DNA of 44,990 nt, from the UHGV virus genome UHGV-0386548. One strand, 5' to 3'. Position 1 is the stretch's first letter, and every line of letters begins with the position of its first letter. The translations under genes were made by a program, and so were the position numbers. Source of the stretch: a virus. Shown piece by piece: positions 4,909 through 23,514 of this stretch. A model generated the notes under the pieces. The model did not search any database. It was given only the letters and a program-made list of their open reading frames with translations, and was not told the origin of the DNA.

Positions 4909-5160
4909 ATGAAACATAAACTTTTAAAAATAGCCAATGATTTAAATAAATTAATTTTGCATAGTGATAAAGAAGTGAAAGCAGAATTTCAAAAATATTA
5001 TGAGGGGGAAGTTGGTATCACCTTTTGGCACTACTCTAAAAAATATGAAAGTAACTGTAATCATCTAAGTTTCTACGAATTTCACACAGATGAAGAATTA
5101 CAAAAATATTTTGAATTAGCAAAAGAAGTTATTGCAGGGGAGTGTTTTATTGATGAGTAA
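4909..5160 (+). CDS. Hypothetical early protein
   Basis: 83 aa. RBS GGAGG upstream. The next gene's start overlaps its stop. Confidence 0.55.
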   Translation: MKHKLLKIANDLNKLILHSDKEVKAEFQKYYEGEVGITFWHYSKKYESNCNHLSFYEFHTDEELQKYFELAKEVIAGECFIDE

Positions 5161-5638
5161 TTTATTCGAATTAAAAGATAGTTACCAACAAGTTTACGAC
5201 CTTATTGCAGAACAAGAAGACGAACAAATTTTAAAAGACACTTTATCAAGTATTAATGACGCTATCGAAGATAAAGCAGATGGATATGTAGCAGTCATTA
5301 AGTCTTTAGAAGCAGATAACAATGCTATAGACGAAGAAATAAAACGATTAAGACAACGTAAAACTTCTAACCAAAACGGTGTCAAACGTTTAAAAGAAAG
5401 TTTACAGGAAGTCATGGAACAAACTGGAAAAGAGAAGTTCAAAACTGCGCTTAATTCGTACAGCATTGCTAACAACCCACCTAGCTTAGATGTCACAGAT
5501 GAAAGTTTAATACCTAAACAATATTACGTCGAACAAGAACCTAAGCTAGATAAAAAAGAGTTGTTGAAAGCTGTTAAAGGTGGTTTAGAACTCAAAGGAG
5601 TAGAACTAAAACAAAATAGAAGTTTGAGGGTGAGATAA
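5154..5638 (+). CDS. Coiled-coil early protein, Siphovirus Gp157-like (often precedes the recombinase)
   Basis: Likely start MSNLFELKD at 5154 (ATG overlapping the previous stop). Acidic and coiled-coil. Position immediately upstream of the Sak4-like gene. Confidence 0.5.
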
Positions 5639-7009: not shown

Positions 7010-7696
7010 ATGCAACACATTACAAGATACCAGCGAGATAACGACGGTACTTATTCCGTCGTTGCGACTGGTGTTGAATTAGAACAAAGTCATATTGACT
7101 TATTAGAAAATGGTTACTCACTCATTGCAGAAGTTGAAGTACCTGATAACAAAAAATTATCAATAGAACAACGTAAAAAGATTTTTGCATTATGTAGAGA
7201 TATTGAGTTGCACTGGGGAGAACCTGTGGAATCGCTAAGGAAAAGGTTTCAATCAGAACTCGAAATTATGAACGGTTACGATGAAATAAGTTTACGTGAC
7301 TGTTCAATGAGAGTGGCAAGAGAATTGATAGAACTGATTATCGCTTTTATGTTCCATCATCAAATACCAATGAGAGTAGAAACAAGTAAGTTATTAAGTG
7401 GGGACAAATCAATGTTGTATTGGGCAACGGTCAATCGAAACTGTGTACTATGCGGGGAATCAAATGCCGACCTTGCACATCACTACGCAATAGGTCGTGG
7501 TGCTAACCGTAAGAAGATGCAGCATTACGATTATGAAGTGTTGGCTTTATGCAGATTCCACCACCAAGAACAGCACAACATAGGCGTTAAGTCTTTTGAC
7601 GAAAAATATATCTTACAAGATAGCTGGATAAAAGTTGATGATCGTTTAAACGCTATGTTGAAAGGAGTTAAAAATGAATTCGAGAGTAATAACTAA
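7010..7696 (+). CDS. Zinc-finger HNH-like nuclease-fold protein (possible Rap/NinG-type recombination nuclease)
   Basis: C-terminal motif CVLCGESNADLAHHYAIGRG...LALCRFHHQEQH (C-x2-C...HH...C...HH). Located in the recombination module. Confidence 0.45.
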   Translation: MQHITRYQRDNDGTYSVVATGVELEQSHIDLLENGYSLIAEVEVPDNKKLSIEQRKKIFALCRDIELHWGEPVESLRKRFQSELEIMNGYDEISLRDCSMRVARELIELIIAFMFHHQIPMRVETSKLLSGDKSMLYWATVNRNCVLCGESNADLAHHYAIGRGANRKKMQHYDYEVLALCRFHHQEQHNIGVKSFDEKYILQDSWIKVDDRLNAMLKGVKNEFESNN

Positions 7697-7904
7697 AGAA
7701 AACAAGAAAGAAATAGCTCATAGAATCAAGCAAATAAGATTACAAAGAGATTTTGATATAAACGAATTCGCTTCAATCTTATATGTTTCTCCTTTCTGTA
7801 TAAAACAATGGGAAGAAGGCAAAAGAATTCCCAATCTTGAGAAAATAAAATTGATAGCATTCGTTTTCAAGACAACACCTGAATGGCTATTGTACGGGGA
7901 GTGA
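7674..7904 (+). CDS. XRE-family HTH transcriptional regulator
   Basis: IKQIRLQRDFDINEFASILYVSPFCIKQWEEGKRIPNLEKI is a helix-turn-helix. Confidence 0.7.
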   Translation: MNSRVITKENKKEIAHRIKQIRLQRDFDINEFASILYVSPFCIKQWEEGKRIPNLEKIKLIAFVFKTTPEWLLYGE

Positions 7905-7909
7905 GAAAG

Positions 7910-8683
7910 ATGGTTAAATCGATATTTTTACAAGATGGAGAAGAAATTTTCGTAGATGATGAAGATTACGAAAGAGTGAATCAACATACTTGGTATAAGT
8001 TTTACACCGGTAATACAAGACATATAAAAAAAGGTGATAAGAAAACGACATCATTAGCTAATTTTTTAGTTGAAGGTAGCACTCAAAAAGAAAAAAATAA
8101 TTATTTTACTAAAGATAATTTGGTGGACTTAAGATATGCCAATAGATACCAAAGAGCAAGAGGACAAAGCGTTTCGAAATATAAAGGCGTGAATTTCAAC
8201 AAAAAAGACCGGAAATGGTGGGCTCAAATATATGTAGATGGTAAGACTAAGCTTTTAGGTAGGTTTTCGAACGAAGATGATGCAGCTTTAGCTTACAATC
8301 GCGGCGTTGATGAATATTTTAACAGTGATGGATATAAAAATAAGATTGGTTATGACAATCGAGTCCCTAGTAGAACGTATCGCACTTTTGACGGTCAAAA
8401 AACAAAACATAAGGGCAAAACAGGATACAAAGGAGTTACTTACAGTTCAAAAAAATTAAACTATTTAAGTAGAATTTCATATAAACTCAACCGTTATCAA
8501 ATAATGTATAGCAAAAGTAAAGAACAATCTGCATTAGTATATAACAAATGTGCTTTATATCTATATGGTGATGACGCGATCCTAAACGATGTACCTATGA
8601 CAGATGAACTCAAAGAATTCATTTCTAACTGGGAGATACCAGACAAAATTAAAGCACTGAAAGAAGGTGCTGATAATGAATAA
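7910..8683 (+). CDS. AP2-domain DNA-binding protein (two AP2-like repeats)
   Basis: YKGVNFNKKDRKWWAQIYVDGKTKLLGRFSNEDDAALAYNRGVDEYF and a second YKGVTYSS...YLSRISY repeat resemble the AP2/ERF fold often linked to phage HNH homing nucleases. Probable start MVKSIF at 7910. Confidence 0.55.
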   Translation: MVKSIFLQDGEEIFVDDEDYERVNQHTWYKFYTGNTRHIKKGDKKTTSLANFLVEGSTQKEKNNYFTKDNLVDLRYANRYQRARGQSVSKYKGVNFNKKDRKWWAQIYVDGKTKLLGRFSNEDDAALAYNRGVDEYFNSDGYKNKIGYDNRVPSRTYRTFDGQKTKHKGKTGYKGVTYSSKKLNYLSRISYKLNRYQIMYSKSKEQSALVYNKCALYLYGDDAILNDVPMTDELKEFISNWEIPDKIKALKEGADNE

Positions 8684-11582: not shown

Positions 11583-11996
11583 ATGGAATTAGCAAAGAAT
11601 AGAACGATTGAATTTAAAAATAATAGATTATATTACGTTGTAAAAACTGAAGAACAGAAACACTTATTGCCAGTTGAAGATGTACACGAAGCTGAATATA
11701 CAGGGACACCATGGAAACTTATTGTAAGACGTATTAAGTATTCTGGTTATAGTCCTGAAGAAGCTTTATTTGAAGAATACAACGAGCAAGATACAGAAGC
11801 AAAAGAGAGAAAACGACTATCTCAATTAGAACATGAGGACAGAATGAGGTTAGTTAGATTAGAACGACAAAAAGAAATTAATCTAAGACGAAAGAAACCT
11901 CACTTGTTCGAAGTGCCTCAAGTACACCCTCGTAGTGAATGGTGTAATTACCTTATGGAAAATGACATCTTTCTTAGAAAGGTGGTTAGATCATGA
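11583..11996 (+). CDS. Hypothetical early protein
   Basis: 137 aa. Basic and coiled-coil in the middle. Confidence 0.5.
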   Translation: MELAKNRTIEFKNNRLYYVVKTEEQKHLLPVEDVHEAEYTGTPWKLIVRRIKYSGYSPEEALFEEYNEQDTEAKERKRLSQLEHEDRMRLVRLERQKEINLRRKKPHLFEVPQVHPRSEWCNYLMENDIFLRKVVRS

Positions 11997-12710: not shown

Positions 12711-13391
12711 ATGGTGTATATGTACGAGCCATTTAGCCACACAGTGACTAAGACAGATCTATCTCATTTGCACAACATTACAGGTATTCCACTAAACACA
12801 CTGTGGTACCAAAAGGAACGTGGAACATATAACGATAAGTTGAAGTGTTTCTTCACCGACACAATGCCAAGAGTGAATAAGAAACAGGAGTTTAACGAAA
12901 GAGTTGTAGCAAAAGATGAAATTTGGAAGTACAGCGAGAAGTACGATCTATACGTAAGTAACTTAGGCAGAATGAAAAGACCTGATGGAAGATACAAGTT
13001 TGCGAATGGATGTAATGGTATTTCCACAGTTATTTATAAAAATAAGAAGTATCGTGCAGCAGATATTGTATATGAAACGTTTATCGGTAATTTGAGAAAT
13101 GGATTACATGCGTACCCTAAGGACAGTAGGTATAACAATCTTATGGCAGATAACCTATTTCAATCTACATTACAGAAATATAGAGTGTATCGCAGAAATA
13201 AAGGCGTATCTAAGCCAGTATATCTTGTCGATAACAACAACCAAATTGTTGAAGAATTCGCAAGTACAGTAGAAGCTCAAAAATTATTATTCATAGACAG
13301 ACGAAACATTGCTAGAAAGTGCAACCGTAAACATGTAAGTGACGGATTGATGTATATGTGGGCAGACGAATACGAGAAGATGAACGCATGA
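12711..13391 (+). CDS. NUMOD4-motif / homing-endonuclease-associated DNA-binding protein (no clear catalytic motif)
   Basis: IWKYSEKYDLYVSNLGRMKRPDGRYK resembles the NUMOD4 motif. The C-terminal EEFASTVEAQKLLFIDRRNIARKC resembles the NUMOD1/IENR HTH found in GIY-YIG/HNH homing enzymes. Confidence 0.45.
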   Translation: MVYMYEPFSHTVTKTDLSHLHNITGIPLNTLWYQKERGTYNDKLKCFFTDTMPRVNKKQEFNERVVAKDEIWKYSEKYDLYVSNLGRMKRPDGRYKFANGCNGISTVIYKNKKYRAADIVYETFIGNLRNGLHAYPKDSRYNNLMADNLFQSTLQKYRVYRRNKGVSKPVYLVDNNNQIVEEFASTVEAQKLLFIDRRNIARKCNRKHVSDGLMYMWADEYEKMNA

Positions 13392-18038: not shown

Positions 18039-19325
18039 ATGGAAGTACAGTTAGATAAAATCGTTGGTGGAGGATATAACCAATTTTTTAATAACAAAAA
18101 CTTTTACAGAGTTGTGAAAGGTTCAAGGGGTAGTAAAAAATCTAAGACGACTGCAATTAATTTTATTTATAGAATTATGGAGTATAACTGGGCAAACTTA
18201 CTTGTTGTCAGACGTTTTAGTAATACTAACAAGCAATCGACATATACCGATTTGCGTTGGGCTACAAATAGACTGGGAGTCAAACACTTATTTAAATTCA
18301 ATGATAGTTTACCAGAGATAACGTATAAACCCACTGGCCAAAAAATATTATTTAGAGGTCTTGATGACCCTTTGAAAATAACATCTATAACAGTAGAAAA
18401 TGGCATACTTTGTTGGGCTTGGTTTGAAGAAGCCTATCAGATAGAAACGTTCGATAAATTTAGTACTGTTGTCGAATCTATACGTGGTTCTATTGATGAT
18501 TCTGAATTTTTTAAACAGATAACGGTCACATTCAACCCCTGGAGTGAGAGACATTGGCTTAAACCTACATTCTTTGACGAAGATACTAAGTTGAACAACA
18601 CATTTTCATATACAACAACCTATCGAGTAAATGAATGGCTTGATGAGGTCGATATTGCGCGTTATGAGGATTTGTACAGAACAAACCCAAGGCGTGCAAG
18701 AATTGTTTGTGATGGAGATTGGGGTGTAGCAGAAGGGCTGGTGTTTGAGAATTTCGAGGTTAAGGAGTTTGACTGGGTTAAAAAGTTGAAAGAAAAGCAA
18801 GTTGTAGCTCATGGCAGTGACTTTGGGTTCACTCAAGATCCTACAACACTTATTAGTACTATCGTTGACTTAAAGAATAAAGAGTTATGGATATACGATG
18901 AGCATTATCAAAGAGGCATGCTGACCGATGAGATATATCAAATGTATCTTGATAAAGGACTGAAAAACGCAAAGATAATTGCAGATAGTGCAGAGAAGCG
19001 ATTGATAACAGAGATTAAACGTAAAGGCATTTCTAATCTCAAACCATCTATTAAAGGTCAAGGTTCTATCATGCAAGGTGTTCAATTTATACAAGGTTTC
19101 AAAATATATGTACATCCAACATGTGAACATACGATAGAAGAATTAAACACTTATACATTCGACCAAGACAAAGACGGTAACTGGTTAAATAAACCAATAG
19201 ATGCAAATAACCATTTAATGGATGCATTGAGATATAGCTTAGAAGAATTCCATTTCCCTAGAAATAACAGAACGAATGTCAATATTAAGAAGAATATTAG
19301 CCGAGCAAAGGCGATGGGCTTATAA
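18039..19325 (+). CDS. terL: Terminase large subunit (Terminase_3/PBSX-type ATPase-nuclease)
   Basis: N-terminal Walker A-like KGSRGSKKSKTT. 428 aa. Acidic nuclease-domain residues toward the C-terminus. Position. Confidence 0.9.
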   Translation: MEVQLDKIVGGGYNQFFNNKNFYRVVKGSRGSKKSKTTAINFIYRIMEYNWANLLVVRRFSNTNKQSTYTDLRWATNRLGVKHLFKFNDSLPEITYKPTGQKILFRGLDDPLKITSITVENGILCWAWFEEAYQIETFDKFSTVVESIRGSIDDSEFFKQITVTFNPWSERHWLKPTFFDEDTKLNNTFSYTTTYRVNEWLDEVDIARYEDLYRTNPRRARIVCDGDWGVAEGLVFENFEVKEFDWVKKLKEKQVVAHGSDFGFTQDPTTLISTIVDLKNKELWIYDEHYQRGMLTDEIYQMYLDKGLKNAKIIADSAEKRLITEIKRKGISNLKPSIKGQGSIMQGVQFIQGFKIYVHPTCEHTIEELNTYTFDQDKDGNWLNKPIDANNHLMDALRYSLEEFHFPRNNRTNVNIKKNISRAKAMGL

Positions 19326-19337
19326 AGGAGGTAACAC

Positions 19338-20870
19338 ATGGCACACGTAAACAATTTCGAAAGAGATATTGAACGACGACAAATGCGTGATGAAATATAC
19401 AGACGTGACGCAGTTGAAACTTACAAATACGATGGTACAACACAAGACTTGTTAGATAATCCTAACGACATCAGCGACTTTATTCGTCATCATTTAGAAG
19501 CACAAGTGCCTAGACTTCAAATGCTAGATGATTATTATCAGGGTTTGAACTTTAACATCATGCGAAACAAAAGGCGTAGAGAAAAGCACTTAGCAGATAA
19601 TAGAGCTGCTCATGACTTCGCTTCTTACATTACAGACTTTATTAACGGTTACTGCTTCGGTCATGCCATACAAGTACAATCAGAAGGCAATATGACACAA
19701 GATAAAATAGATCAGTTGCATGCAATAAACGACATTGATAGTCACAATCGTTCACTGGGGTTAGATTTATCTATATTTGGCCGTGCTTATGAATACATCA
19801 TACGTAATCAACAAGATGAAGTTAGAATTTATAAATCAGACCCACGTAATACATTCGTTATATACGATACTACCATTGAGAAAAATAGTATTATGGCTGT
19901 TAGATATTGGAAAGTATCGACAGAAGATAGTGTCGAGATGACTGAGGTAGAAAGCAATATCTACTATGTTGATGTAATTACTGATAATGCAACATATTTC
20001 TTTGTGGCGAACAGTGTTACTAACTTAGAGTTATCAGAGCGTAAACCTCCTGAAGCGCATTCATTTGGCAAAGTAACTATTACAGAGTTTAGCAATAATG
20101 AAAAGCGACGCGGAGACTTTGAAAAGGTCATACCACTTATTGACTTATATGATGAGGCGCAGTCAGATACAGCTAACTATATGAGTGATTTAAATGACGC
20201 AATGCTACTCATCAAAGGCAACGTTGACCTGAATGAAGAAGTAGCGACACTGCAAAAAGAGGCTAATGTGTTCCATCTAGCACCTCCTGAATATACAACG
20301 GTAGATGATAAAGTAACGGAAGGTAATGTAGACGCTCAATACATCTATAAACAATATGATGTAAGTGGCGTTGAATCGTATAAAACAAGAATTGCTAAAG
20401 ACATTCACACACTCACTAACACACCAGATATGACTGATGAAAACTTTGGAGGTCAACAATCTGGAGAAGCCATGAAATATAAGCTATTTGGTTTAGAACA
20501 ACGTACAGCGATTAAAGAAGGTCTATTTCGAAAAGGCTTAGTTAGACGTTACAAGTTAGTTGGAGAAATTATGAGTATCAATAGAGAAATAGATAAGGAC
20601 AACCTTAGAGACTTGATATTCACATTCACAAGAAACTTGCCTAAGTCACTGACAGAAGAAATGCAAATGTACATCAATTCTGGTGGAGAAATCAGTCAGA
20701 AAACATTAATGTCTCTTGTTTCTTTCATAGACAATCCTAAAGATGAAGTTGAACGTATCAGAAAAGAACAAGAAGAAAAGATAAAACATTCTGATGAGTT
20801 GATGTTCAATGATCTAACTGATAACCCACCATCGGAAGAAGATGACGAAACACCTTACAATAAGGGGTGA
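19338..20870 (+). CDS. Portal protein (SPP1 gp6-like)
   Basis: 510 aa, immediately after TerL. Acidic C-terminus. Confidence 0.88.
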   Translation: MAHVNNFERDIERRQMRDEIYRRDAVETYKYDGTTQDLLDNPNDISDFIRHHLEAQVPRLQMLDDYYQGLNFNIMRNKRRREKHLADNRAAHDFASYITDFINGYCFGHAIQVQSEGNMTQDKIDQLHAINDIDSHNRSLGLDLSIFGRAYEYIIRNQQDEVRIYKSDPRNTFVIYDTTIEKNSIMAVRYWKVSTEDSVEMTEVESNIYYVDVITDNATYFFVANSVTNLELSERKPPEAHSFGKVTITEFSNNEKRRGDFEKVIPLIDLYDEAQSDTANYMSDLNDAMLLIKGNVDLNEEVATLQKEANVFHLAPPEYTTVDDKVTEGNVDAQYIYKQYDVSGVESYKTRIAKDIHTLTNTPDMTDENFGGQQSGEAMKYKLFGLEQRTAIKEGLFRKGLVRRYKLVGEIMSINREIDKDNLRDLIFTFTRNLPKSLTEEMQMYINSGGEISQKTLMSLVSFIDNPKDEVERIRKEQEEKIKHSDELMFNDLTDNPPSEEDDETPYNKG

Positions 20871-20876
20871 TAATAC

Positions 20877-21827
20877 ATGACTTATTGGGACAATAGAGCG
20901 AAAGAAATCATCAAAGATGAAACACTAAGTGATAAAGAAATGTCGCTCGAGATAGAACGTATTATCAACAACATGATTAATGATATTGAGAATGAGATAT
21001 CTAAGTTCTACGCTCGATATGCAGACAGCGAAGGCATTAGTATTTCAGAAGCTAAAAAGAAAATTGATAACTTCGATGTTCAATCTTTCGCTAATAAAGC
21101 TAGAAAATATGTACAAGATAACGACTTTAGTGAAAGAGCAAATAGAGAACTAAAAAGATATAATACTGCGATGTACGTAAACAGGGAAAAGCTACTAAAA
21201 GCGCAGCTAGGATTAATCGTAACGTATTCATATGCACAGATAGAGCAATCAATGTACAACTATATGGAAAGTGCTTATTATCGCTCGTTAAAACAACAGG
21301 CAGGCATATTAGGTGAAACGTTACATGTATCATTAAACGATGTTAAAACGATCGTTACTGCACCTTTCCAAAACTCTAATTGGTCTCGTAGACTATGGCG
21401 TGATATGAAAGTAGTTAGACACCATGTTGAAAAAGCGACAAGTCAAGTATTACTAAGAGGTCGCCATCCTTACGAATTCGTAAAAGAATTTAGAAAAGAA
21501 ACTGGCAATAGTACGTATGAGATAAGACGTTTACTCACAACGGAAACAGCTAGAGTACAAACATTAGCTGCAAAGCGTCATATGTTAGAACAACATGGAC
21601 CTGACGCAGAATATGAATATCACGCTAAGATGGATAGTAAGACAACAAAGACGTGCAGAGGATTAAACAAAAAAGTTTTCAAAGTTAAAGATATGCAACC
21701 TGGCGTAAACGCTCCGCCGATGCATCCTTTTTGTCGGAGTGCTGTCGCACCACACATCAATCCTGATTGGCGTGATAAGTTCTTTGAAGAGCGCGAAGGA
21801 AGATATTTCGGAGGCGTTGTTAAATAA
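20877..21827 (+). CDS. Minor head / head-morphogenesis protein (Mu gpF / SPP1 gp7-like)
   Basis: 316 aa following portal. Conserved order in staphylococcal siphoviruses. Confidence 0.78.
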   Translation: MTYWDNRAKEIIKDETLSDKEMSLEIERIINNMINDIENEISKFYARYADSEGISISEAKKKIDNFDVQSFANKARKYVQDNDFSERANRELKRYNTAMYVNREKLLKAQLGLIVTYSYAQIEQSMYNYMESAYYRSLKQQAGILGETLHVSLNDVKTIVTAPFQNSNWSRRLWRDMKVVRHHVEKATSQVLLRGRHPYEFVKEFRKETGNSTYEIRRLLTTETARVQTLAAKRHMLEQHGPDAEYEYHAKMDSKTTKTCRGLNKKVFKVKDMQPGVNAPPMHPFCRSAVAPHINPDWRDKFFEEREGRYFGGVVK

Positions 21828-21846
21828 TTAAAAGGAGGTGTTGTAA

Positions 21847-22392
21847 ATGCCAGATGATAATAATCTTACAAATACACCGCCAGTTACTAATGAAGGTGTA
21901 GCAGAAGAAATTGTTGATAATTCTGTAGGGGATTATGAAGATGCTGATTGGGAAGAAGAAGAAGTGCTAGACACTGATTTCAGTGATGAAGAAGATAGCA
22001 TGTATGAAGATGATTTCATGGAAGATGACGACGAATTTGAAGAAGATGAAAACTGGGAAGAAGAGTACGACTTTTCTGATGACTTTGATCAAGAGGATTT
22101 AGATTTCTTAGAGGGGCTAGGCGGTCCTGAAGAAGCATTAGAAGATGAGTACGAAGAAGATTACGAAACAGAAGAAGGCCTATATGACGTCACTGAACTT
22201 GATGGTGATACAATCGATGAGTATGACAAGTACGATGAAAGTTACTTGCAAGATAGATTAGATGATGTGTATGACGAATACAATCAGATATTTAATAAAG
22301 AGCCATCAGATATCATCAAAGATAGTATGACAACTCAAGAGAAGATAGACAAAATTGTTGATGCAATTCAAGAGGGTGGAAACGGTGTGTAA
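21847..22392 (+). CDS. Hyper-acidic head-module protein (about half Asp/Glu, rich in Tyr/Phe/Trp)
   Basis: Sequence such as EDADWEEEEVLDTDFSDEEDSMYEDDFMEDDDEFEEDENWEEEYDFSDDFDQEDLDF... RBS AAGGAGGTG. Confidence 0.6.
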   Translation: MPDDNNLTNTPPVTNEGVAEEIVDNSVGDYEDADWEEEEVLDTDFSDEEDSMYEDDFMEDDDEFEEDENWEEEYDFSDDFDQEDLDFLEGLGGPEEALEDEYEEDYETEEGLYDVTELDGDTIDEYDKYDESYLQDRLDDVYDEYNQIFNKEPSDIIKDSMTTQEKIDKIVDAIQEGGNGV

Positions 22393-22531
22393 TGAACGTA
22401 TCGCTAAAGCTCTCGAAGGCATTCAATATGAATTGAAAAGATTGAATGACTCGAACCCTAGTAACCAAGCACAAGTGAAGCAGAAAGAGCCTGAGAAGAA
22501 AGAGTTTAAACCTAAAAATTTTATTTAGAGG

Positions 22532-22732
22532 GTGTTAGCTGAAATGGCTATAGAAGTATACGAATTAAAGACAGTAAGTTCATATCCAGGTTACGAAACA
22601 GTTAAAAGTTATAGATTAAGTGAAGGTAGTAGAGAACATCTAGATTTATTATCTAGAAACAAAAGAGATATACCAGTGATTCAAAAAACTAATGTTACTA
22701 CTGATGAATATGGATTTTCATATTTAAAATAA
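22532..22732 (+). CDS. Hypothetical small protein
   Basis: 66 aa. RBS GAGGGTG. Confidence 0.45.
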   Translation: MLAEMAIEVYELKTVSSYPGYETVKSYRLSEGSREHLDLLSRNKRDIPVIQKTNVTTDEYGFSYLK

Positions 22733-22902
22733 TATTTTGACCTAAGCAAGTCATTAAACTGCTAATAACATAATCAACTGGATTAATACAATGTAATAAA
22801 CATAAACATCAGCACACTTTATTGGGCTTAACCGCACTATAATGGGTGCTTTTTTTATGCGTAAAATCATTCGTGTTAAGACTGTTTGAAAGGACGATAT
22901 AA

Positions 22903-23514
22903 ATGAATGAAATTAAACGATTAAAGCTAAATTTACAGCATTTCGCTGAAGATAATCCAAATGATCCTGAAGGAAAAGATAAACAAAGTGGAAATGACCA
23001 AGGCGATGATGACAAAAAATTTTTTGAATTAACTCAAAGTGAGTTAGATAGTCAAAAACACAAGGCTGTAAATAAAGCATTAGCAAATCAAGAGAAAAAA
23101 TTCGAACAAAGGTTAAAAGAAGCTGTTGAAAATGCACGTTCTGAAGCTGAAAGCTACGCTAAGTTAACTGAAAAAGAGAAGAAAGACAAAGAAATTGAGA
23201 AACGCGAACAAGCCTTAGCTGAAAAGGAAAAAGAATTTAAATTGCGTGAACTCAAAGCTGATGTAGAAAGTGACTTAAAAGAAAAAGGTCTACCTACTTC
23301 GTTTGCACAGTCTTTAATTCATTTGGAAGATAACGAACAAATTAATGATGTCGTTAATTCGATTAAAGAAGATTTCGACAAAGCTGTACAAGAGCAAGTT
23401 AAAGAAGCTACACGTCAATCAACACCTTACGGACAAGGTAGTGACGTATCTTCTAAAAAAGAAACATCTAAAAGTTTTGCAGAAATAGCAAGACAAAATA
23501 GAATAATTCAATAA
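22903..23514 (+). CDS. Capsid scaffolding protein
   Basis: The N-terminal KRLKLNLQHFAE motif is shared with Staph-phage scaffold proteins. Highly charged coiled-coil, immediately upstream of the major capsid gene. Confidence 0.8.
   Translation: MNEIKRLKLNLQHFAEDNPNDPEGKDKQSGNDQGDDDKKFFELTQSELDSQKHKAVNKALANQEKKFEQRLKEAVENARSEAESYAKLTEKEKKDKEIEKREQALAEKEKEFKLRELKADVESDLKEKGLPTSFAQSLIHLEDNEQINDVVNSIKEDFDKAVQEQVKEATRQSTPYGQGSDVSSKKETSKSFAEIARQNRIIQ

Follow-up and report, generated by a model that had tools for sequence, protein, structure and literature searches.

The 44,990-nucleotide (nt) virus genome UHGV-0386548 (hereafter the window, meaning the whole stretch of DNA that was analysed) represents a complete phi11/80alpha-type temperate siphovirus. 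Its late terminase-portal-MuF cluster contains a gene for a hyper-acidic protein of 181 amino acids (aa), which we regard as a two-part accessory of the head-assembly operon in a temperate phi11/80alpha-like siphovirus of coagulase-negative staphylococci. Homology to shorter relatives shows a conserved C-terminal domain of ∼50 aa, to which a ∼127-aa N-terminal addition, specific to one lineage, has been joined. As to function, our tentative preference is for a tethered polyanion that would rival nucleic acid for binding to a basic partner, which is most plausibly the MuF/SPP1 gp7-like minor head protein (MuF) encoded immediately upstream. The gene and its parts are listed here, with dN/dS denoting the ratio of nonsynonymous to synonymous substitution rates and SD a Shine-Dalgarno sequence.

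21831-21840, + strand: SD AAAGGAGGTG, read from the sequence; strong, canonical for Gram-positive species, 6 nt 5' of the ATG
21847-22392, + strand: hyper-acidic protein gene (phrog_35793), 181 aa plus TAA; assigned from profile match, conservation and dN/dS
21847-21927, + strand: leader, aa 1-27; rich in T/N/P, 22% acidic, the least constrained part (mean pairwise identity 0.84), predicted coil
21928-22227, + strand: polyanionic core, aa 28-127; defined by composition, predicted disorder and dN/dS
22228-22389, + strand: two-helix domain, aa 128-181 (phrog_14482); defined by homology to stand-alone proteins of 50-52 aa
21828-22235, + strand, boundaries approximate: ∼400-nt insertion relative to short-form relatives, placed by DNA alignment of the MuF junction

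A preliminary description, made from the sequence alone, had placed the open reading frame (ORF) at exactly 21847-22392 on the + strand with a product of 181 aa, which our analysis confirms, and the acidic string that it quoted (EEYDFSDDFDQEDLDFLEG) is found at aa 72-90. It had also set the gene between those for MuF and the scaffolding protein; the gene does directly follow that for MuF, but two small ORFs and a terminator-like hairpin intervene before the scaffold gene. An in-frame TAA stands immediately 5' of the ATG, and the acidic product is therefore separate from the upstream MuF protein; with the gene's own SD, this stop codon excludes a fusion of the two by read-through or frameshifting. 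The protein contains 38 aspartates and 37 glutamates (75 D/E, 41%), together with 6 lysines or arginines (K/R), 0 histidines (H) and 20 aromatic residues (F/W/Y, 11%), for a net charge of -69. Residues 1-127 are devoid of K/R/H, the first basic residue being K128, so that trypsin would yield no peptide from this region. Within the core (aa 28-127) the D/E content rises to 55%, with 0 K/R/H, 15% aromatic residues and a net charge per residue of -0.55; the earlier estimate of 'about half Asp/Glu' thus suits the core and overstates the whole protein. This composition is far beyond chance; among the window's other + strand ORFs of 80 aa or more, the most acidic reaches 25% D/E.

The same protein was found at 59 IMG/VR loci and in one Staphylococcus pettenkoferi prophage (84-100% identity), and also occurs in prophages of S. 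epidermidis and S. capitis, where it carries the NCBI label 'hypothetical protein'. Its length is 179-182 aa across 42 distinct protein versions, with ATG and TTG starts used at one and the same position among homologous loci; a single 147-aa in-frame deletion variant was found within an otherwise intact head module. By the Nei-Gojobori method, applied to 45 distinct nucleotide versions of the gene, dN/dS was 0.087 for the gene as a whole, 0.30 for aa 1-27, 0.106 for the acidic core at a proportion of synonymous differences (pS) of 0.39, and 0.012 for aa 128-181; the corresponding values over a smaller common set of loci were 0.07 for MuF, 0.05 for the capsid protein and 0.39 for the scaffolding protein. 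Among the 42 distinct proteins, 69 of the 100 core columns are invariant, as are 18 of the 20 aromatic residues, and the spacing of the aromatics is more even than in shuffled sequences (P ∼0.035). The longest pure acid run spans 5 residues. Self-alignment of the protein revealed no internal repeats above shuffle level (score 55, against a shuffle mean of 52.8 +/- 7.5) and lends no support to an origin of the tract by repeats or slippage. The acidic gene is therefore real and under selection rather than a GA-rich artefact, and the low dN/dS, the invariant columns and the absence of repeats above shuffles together show that the tract is no homopolymer-like product of slippage and that more than its charge is constrained. 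The weak 18-nt and 12-nt repeats that Tandem Repeats Finder reports would suit a near-neutral, low-complexity expansion without a function of its own, but given the core dN/dS at this pS, the share of invariant columns (69%) and the lack of significant protein-level repeats, we consider such an expansion highly improbable. One further database entry (P0006), in which the acidic N-terminus is joined to a sigma-70 region 4 in a chimera encoded on a contig of 503 nt, was disregarded as an artefact.

The two-part anatomy emerges from profile matches and from comparison with short-form relatives. The whole protein matches phrog_35793 (1.2e-106, aa 3-181), while phrog_14482, a family of 50 positions, matches aa 134-177 only (2e-17); PHROG labels both families 'unknown function'. 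Residues 128-181 are homologous to free-standing proteins of 50-52 aa encoded at the same position, directly after MuF, in the phages StB12 (gp46, YP_009130725), StB27 and IME1323_01 (ARM67863) and in several viral contigs; these true homologues lack the acidic insertion and are 38-50% identical, the invariant positions being V, D, E, Q, P, D, M, T, K and Q. Alignment of the MuF junction with that of two short-form phages in which MuF is ∼90% identical (L092, L096), and with that of IME1323_01, gives a clean insertion of ∼400 nt to which the SD, the start codon and the acidic tract all belong; the small gene of the short forms has a start that either overlaps the MuF stop codon or comes right after it.

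When 1.84 billion representative proteins were scanned exhaustively with HMMER, no relatives of the acidic module came to light outside this clade, the only matches being fragments of the acidic protein, short two-helix homologues and one tetratricopeptide repeat (TPR) protein. The last of these (P0013, 677 aa, with nine matches to the two-helix domain) was rejected as homology, though it hints at a TPR-like helix-turn-helix. A protein in which the two-helix domain seems fused to the product of the next gene (P0023) was likewise dismissed as an artefact of error-ridden long-read assembly; the contig with the false fusion (L139; ENA ERZ1330249 tig00000039) is a long-read assembly in which the portal gene lies in four pieces. 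No relatives of the two-helix domain were detected in Pfam or the PDB by single-sequence or profile searches, and by hhalign the domain is unrelated to the neighbouring small-protein family. For the acidic protein, searches of Pfam, NCBIfam, PADLOC, the PDB (sequence and profile) and, with Foldseek, BFVD yielded nothing meaningful, and word-indexed protein searches returned near-identical proteins and fragments only. Neither megablast of the MuF-to-scaffold region nor tblastn of the whole protein gave a match among 50,697 phage records; relatives, all of them short-form, surfaced only with blastn in 'distant' mode and tblastn of the C-terminal 50 aa. Of the named phages, IME1323_01, IME1318_01 and StB12 (Azeredovirinae; hosts S. 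caprae, S. haemolyticus and S. hominis) come closest, with a head-gene DNA identity of 72-79%. We found no function described in the literature for the small genes at this position.

AlphaFold2 was run twice, first with the single sequence and then with a shallow alignment of 11 sequences, giving a mean predicted local distance difference test score (pLDDT) of 55.7, predicted template modelling scores of 0.15/0.18 and a core pLDDT of ∼50-59. Apart from a short helix at 82-89/90, the chain is modelled as coil over aa 1-120 (first run) or 1-130 (second run), and the C-terminal helices are placed at 131-149 and 163-176 (second run). Foldseek of the model against the BFVD viral models returned nothing at E<=0.001. 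On the strength of this outcome and of the composition, the N-terminal tract is predicted to be a swollen, disordered polyelectrolyte with no rigid, B-DNA-like array of carboxylates. As a rough inference, the extended chain would carry ∼1 charge per 6.5 angstroms, nearer to single-stranded than to duplex DNA.

The closest parallel in composition is residues 56-122 of SPO1 Gp44, a tract that is experimentally disordered and has been called a 'flexible DNA mimic' (PMC8208478). On re-measurement this tract has 57% D/E, against 55% in the core here, and neither contains K/R/H; both are disordered (here by prediction), both are attached to a small folded domain, and both come from phages of Firmicutes. 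The likeness is compositional only, with no sequence similarity (best BLASTP E ∼1.4), and the aromatic content differs (15% here, 4% in Gp44). Gp44, moreover, acts early, in host takeover, binds DNA through an N-terminal domain and has RNA polymerase (RNAP) as its target, whereas the protein here is encoded late, in the head module, and has a C-terminal two-helix domain. The combination of a flexible, acidic, nucleic-acid-mimicking tract with this architecture and genomic context appears, from the comparisons made, to be new. T7 Ocr (gp0.3) and ArdA are likewise strongly acidic proteins of phages or mobile elements with aromatic residues, and share the proposed logic of competing with DNA. Ocr, however, has 29% D/E and 9% K/R/H, a hydrophobic core and a rigid dimeric fold that mimics bent B-DNA; the acidic core has about twice its charge density, is encoded late rather than early, and shows neither homology nor a predicted fold.

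These comparisons bear on the further claims of the preliminary description. Its placing of the charge density within the range of known DNA mimics proved too low, the value being well above that of Ocr. Its proposal of an Ocr- or ArdA-type mimic found no support, with no Pfam-A match at E<=0.1, no NCBIfam match, no BLASTP likeness to T7 Ocr, a single chance match in the PDB sequence search (malate dehydrogenase, E 0.68) and no fold in the AlphaFold2 models, where the B-DNA-like spacing of charges that it had suggested looking for is replaced by a chain with no rigid array. What survives of the mimic idea is the extreme polyanion in a head module, for which SPO1 Gp44 provides a disordered precedent (PMC8208478); a structured mimic does not. 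As to the scaffold-like protein that it named as an alternative, the acidic protein matches no profile of the scaffold families (DUF4355, 80alpha gp46), and the true scaffold is a separate gene at 22903-23514. The description had held that a predicted structure resembling a disordered assembly chaperone would speak against its idea, and the modelled structure leans that way, although a flexible injected decoy would still be compatible with it.

For the comparison of gene order, 80 loci were gathered through the MuF protein. The elements flanking it in the window are these:

18039-19325, + strand: terminase large subunit, in the late gene cluster
19338-20870, + strand: SPP1-type portal (PF05133 at 1.5e-109)
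20877-21827, + strand: MuF/SPP1 gp7-like minor head protein, 316 aa, isoelectric point (pI) 9.3 (PF04233 8.7e-16; TIGR01641 1.2e-28)
22385-22528, + strand: small gene of 47 aa (phrog_12256), GTG start, pI 9.25; near-universal member of the slot described below
22532-22732, + strand: ORF of 66 aa, coding status uncertain; no PHROG, Pfam, NCBIfam or PADLOC match
22834-22859, + strand: terminator-like hairpin GCACTATAATGGGTGC with T-run, from a consensus scan only
22903-23514, + strand: scaffolding protein, DUF4355/gp46-like (PF14265 7e-19; phrog_172 5e-44)

The interval from MuF to the scaffold gene (21828-22902 in the window) is a cassette slot in which as many as three families of small genes are variously combined – a phi11-like protein of 59-66 aa, the two-helix protein (50-76 aa or 181 aa), and a near-universal protein of 47-58 aa – while the head genes flanking it stay conserved. 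The interval is thus a hotspot of small accessory genes inside a structural operon. Since close relatives lack the two-helix gene or have only its short form, the acidic protein is an accessory rather than a core component of assembly.

This distribution also bears on a role for the protein as a capsid component, whether a scaffold-like filler expelled by DNA or an external acidic 'brush', held in place by the two-helix domain, that would lessen sticking of the head to anionic cell-wall polymers. Scaffolds are typically acidic and are displaced by DNA, and both the head-module position and the near-invariant length (179-182 aa) would fit such a role. A bona fide scaffold gene nevertheless exists, close relatives make do, for assembly, with the 50-aa form or with no copy of the gene, the 147-aa deletion variant sits in an intact head module, and we know of no decoration protein for 80alpha-type capsids; we therefore regard a capsid component as very unlikely. 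The very small probability given above to a near-neutral expansion covers in addition the possibility of an immunity protein for a MuF-borne toxin. Small ORFs that follow long MuF toxins have been proposed as immunity genes (PMC5576092), but no long, toxin-bearing MuF precedes the gene here: MuF in the window is a short form of 316 aa that ends right after the MuF domain, with no toxin extension, and the two-helix gene accompanies short and long MuF alike. The MuF of StB12 (L003 2967-4472; 501 aa), which is classed as a 'MuF toxin' (PMC5576092), carries a basic, N/K/P-rich, low-complexity C-terminal extension with a hydrophobic helix at its end and no obvious enzyme domain; it lies at the same junction as the acidic insertion here, and has the opposite charge.

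MuF in the window is the counterpart of the 80alpha ejection protein gp44. The latter binds DNA non-specifically, has an affinity for blunt ends and is ejected along with the genome (PMC7290940); for its incorporation, portal residues 488-511, the last 24, are required (PMC12889711). The phi11 homologue of this portal tail contains 11 D/E among its 24 residues, and the last 24 aa of the portal in the window are also acidic (8 D/E, 1 K/R). The 80alpha system, in the same operon and with the same MuF-family neighbour, offers a precedent for an acidic tail recruiting a basic minor head protein that binds DNA ends (PMC7290940, PMC12889711), although the acidic element there belongs to the portal, and neither 80alpha nor phi11 has a homologue of the acidic gene. 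In the window, the acidic gene has basic neighbours on both sides, MuF (pI 9.3) and the 47-aa protein (pI 9.25).

In the mechanism that we tentatively favour, the two-helix domain would anchor the protein on a partner in the head module, and the tail, as a flexible, nucleic-acid-like polyanion, would vie with DNA for basic DNA-binding surfaces and occupy them. Its likeliest client would be the adjacent basic protein of the MuF/gp44 type, which the acidic protein might keep off replicating DNA, or pass to the portal, during procapsid assembly. The protein would then enhance assembly without being essential to it, and would aid the loading of MuF into procapsids. Several points weigh against this mechanism. 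The two-helix gene is absent from six loci (L112, L114, L116, L120, L122 and L134) whose MuF is ∼70-73% identical, and from phi11, so that MuF does not need it; across the 80 loci, the MuF C-termini show no co-variation with the presence, absence or length of the gene; and genes for host interaction or counter-defence are found in variable accessory slots at least as typically as are assembly helpers. Low AlphaFold2 confidence, here from a shallow alignment (11 sequences), is only a proxy for disorder. If the tail does compete with DNA on MuF/gp44-type proteins, this would explain how a non-specific binder of DNA ends stays free for DNA-less procapsids, a loading step otherwise unexplained for the widespread MuF/SPP1-gp7 family.

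The same proximity to MuF can be read as a sign of delivery. According to the model of the preliminary description, the protein enters the virion, perhaps attached to MuF or the portal, and is co-injected, blocking restriction or DNA-sensing defences at the start of infection. The acidic gene does adjoin that of an ejected-protein family (PMC7290940), its accessory status and patchy distribution fit a host-interaction role, and its product is an extreme polyanion for which flexible acidic DNA mimicry has a precedent (PMC8208478). Its location among head genes matches that of packaged or ejected proteins such as the T4 internal proteins (Ip1-3), 80alpha gp44 and P1 Dar, and the charge load would be small, 12 copies contributing ∼830 charges by our estimate against ∼90,000 for the genome. 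T4 Ip1-3 are a precedent for packaged, co-injected anti-restriction proteins, but they have an N-terminal capsid-targeting leader and act on specific GmrSD enzymes (PMC12373910), and the acidic protein has no such leader and no homology to them that we could find. Expression from the late operon means that an anti-restriction role would need packaging, and there is no homology to Ocr, no match to any Pfam family (anti-restriction families included) and no rigid fold in the AlphaFold2 models. The charge spacing, resembling that of single-stranded DNA (ssDNA), would in addition suit type I enzymes poorly, as these clamp B-DNA, and a polyanion held on MuF would compete with the binding of DNA ends by MuF after injection. 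Weighing these points, we consider the model unlikely. A narrower form of it, in which the two-helix domain anchors the protein to MuF or the portal in the virion and the protein, ejected along with the DNA, serves as a disordered, ssDNA-like decoy against staphylococcal nucleases or DNA-sensing defences, seems to us quite unlikely. Were it true, this would be, for temperate siphoviruses, the first DNA-mimicking anti-defence protein to be injected and also the first to be disordered, and would have arisen by insertion of an acidic module into a pre-existing small gene of the head module.

A decoy might also act without being packaged, late in infection and in the cytoplasm, soaking up a nucleic-acid-binding protein of the host or a satellite; candidate targets would be a nuclease effector of abortive infection or type III CRISPR, a nucleoid protein, RNAP, or folds of the oligonucleotide/oligosaccharide-binding (OB) type as in single-stranded DNA-binding protein (SSB). 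The gene is an accessory within a variable slot, its product is near-identical in composition to the RNAP-binding tract of SPO1 Gp44 (PMC8208478), and its conserved, evenly spaced aromatics would, we infer, suit clefts that bind ssDNA. Host RNAP, however, is needed for the phage's own late genes, and a Mu Gam-like end-protection gene is already present in the early region. A phage partner is suggested instead by the conservation of the two-helix domain and by how tightly it is linked to MuF in the short forms, and we give the cytoplasmic decoy only a small probability. If the protein is delivered or directed at the host in either manner, the means by which phages of S. epidermidis and S. capitis counter defence would be extended by a disordered decoy for DNA or ssDNA that acts through charge only; in these two species, restriction and type III CRISPR limit horizontal transfer. 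Physically extreme and clearly selected, the protein is nonetheless confined to phages of coagulase-negative staphylococci; whether it acts as the tethered competitor on MuF that we tentatively favour or in some other way, it is a clear natural case in which a small conserved phage gene has had a new, selected, disordered module grafted onto it.

The remaining members of the slot show features of their own. The last 8 nt of the acidic gene are shared with the 47-aa gene, and the N-terminal helix motif of the 47-aa protein (IAxxLxxIxxELxxxN) weakly resembles the phi11-like family of 59 aa (hhalign probability 49%); in phi11 itself, the homologue (L004 3366-3551) is unannotated in the phage record. 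The 66-aa ORF is seen in only a few related contigs (L066, L068, L069, L101 and L130), with other sequence replacing it in most. A promoter-like site (22765-22792, a consensus match only) lies upstream of the scaffold gene, and with the terminator-like hairpin it hints that the packaging, portal and MuF genes may differ in expression level from the scaffold and capsid genes. The scaffolding protein, whose gene is followed by that of the major capsid protein, begins with MNEIKRLKLNLQHFAEDNP (22903-22950, + strand); its LNLQ(F/H)FA motif resembles the cleavage site for the host protease Prp in the scaffold and capsid proteins of 80alpha, and the capsid protein here lacks the motif.

Elsewhere in the window, the lysogeny and early genes comprise an integrase, CI/Cro-like regulators, an anti-repressor, Mu Gam-like and Sak4-like proteins, SSB, replication proteins, a dUTPase and a RinA-like late activator; Rfam detected no RNA elements in the window. 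Four of the genes in this part are given with their coordinates.

5132-5638, + strand: Mu Gam-like DNA-end-protection gene (phrog_253, 2e-60), adjoining the Sak4-like annealase and SSB genes
7883-8683, + strand: HNH endonuclease-family gene, replication/early region
11583-11996, + strand: ORF matching phrog_201, labelled 'Panton-Valentine leukocidin' in a family filed under DNA/RNA metabolism
12711-13391, + strand: HNH endonuclease-family gene, replication/early region

The position of the Mu Gam-like gene in the early region means that the phage has an early end-protection function separate from MuF. A further ORF, at 7010-7696, has a weakly HNH-like C-terminus. The leukocidin label attached to phrog_201 is almost certainly a propagated mis-annotation, and the ORF that matches it not a toxin gene.

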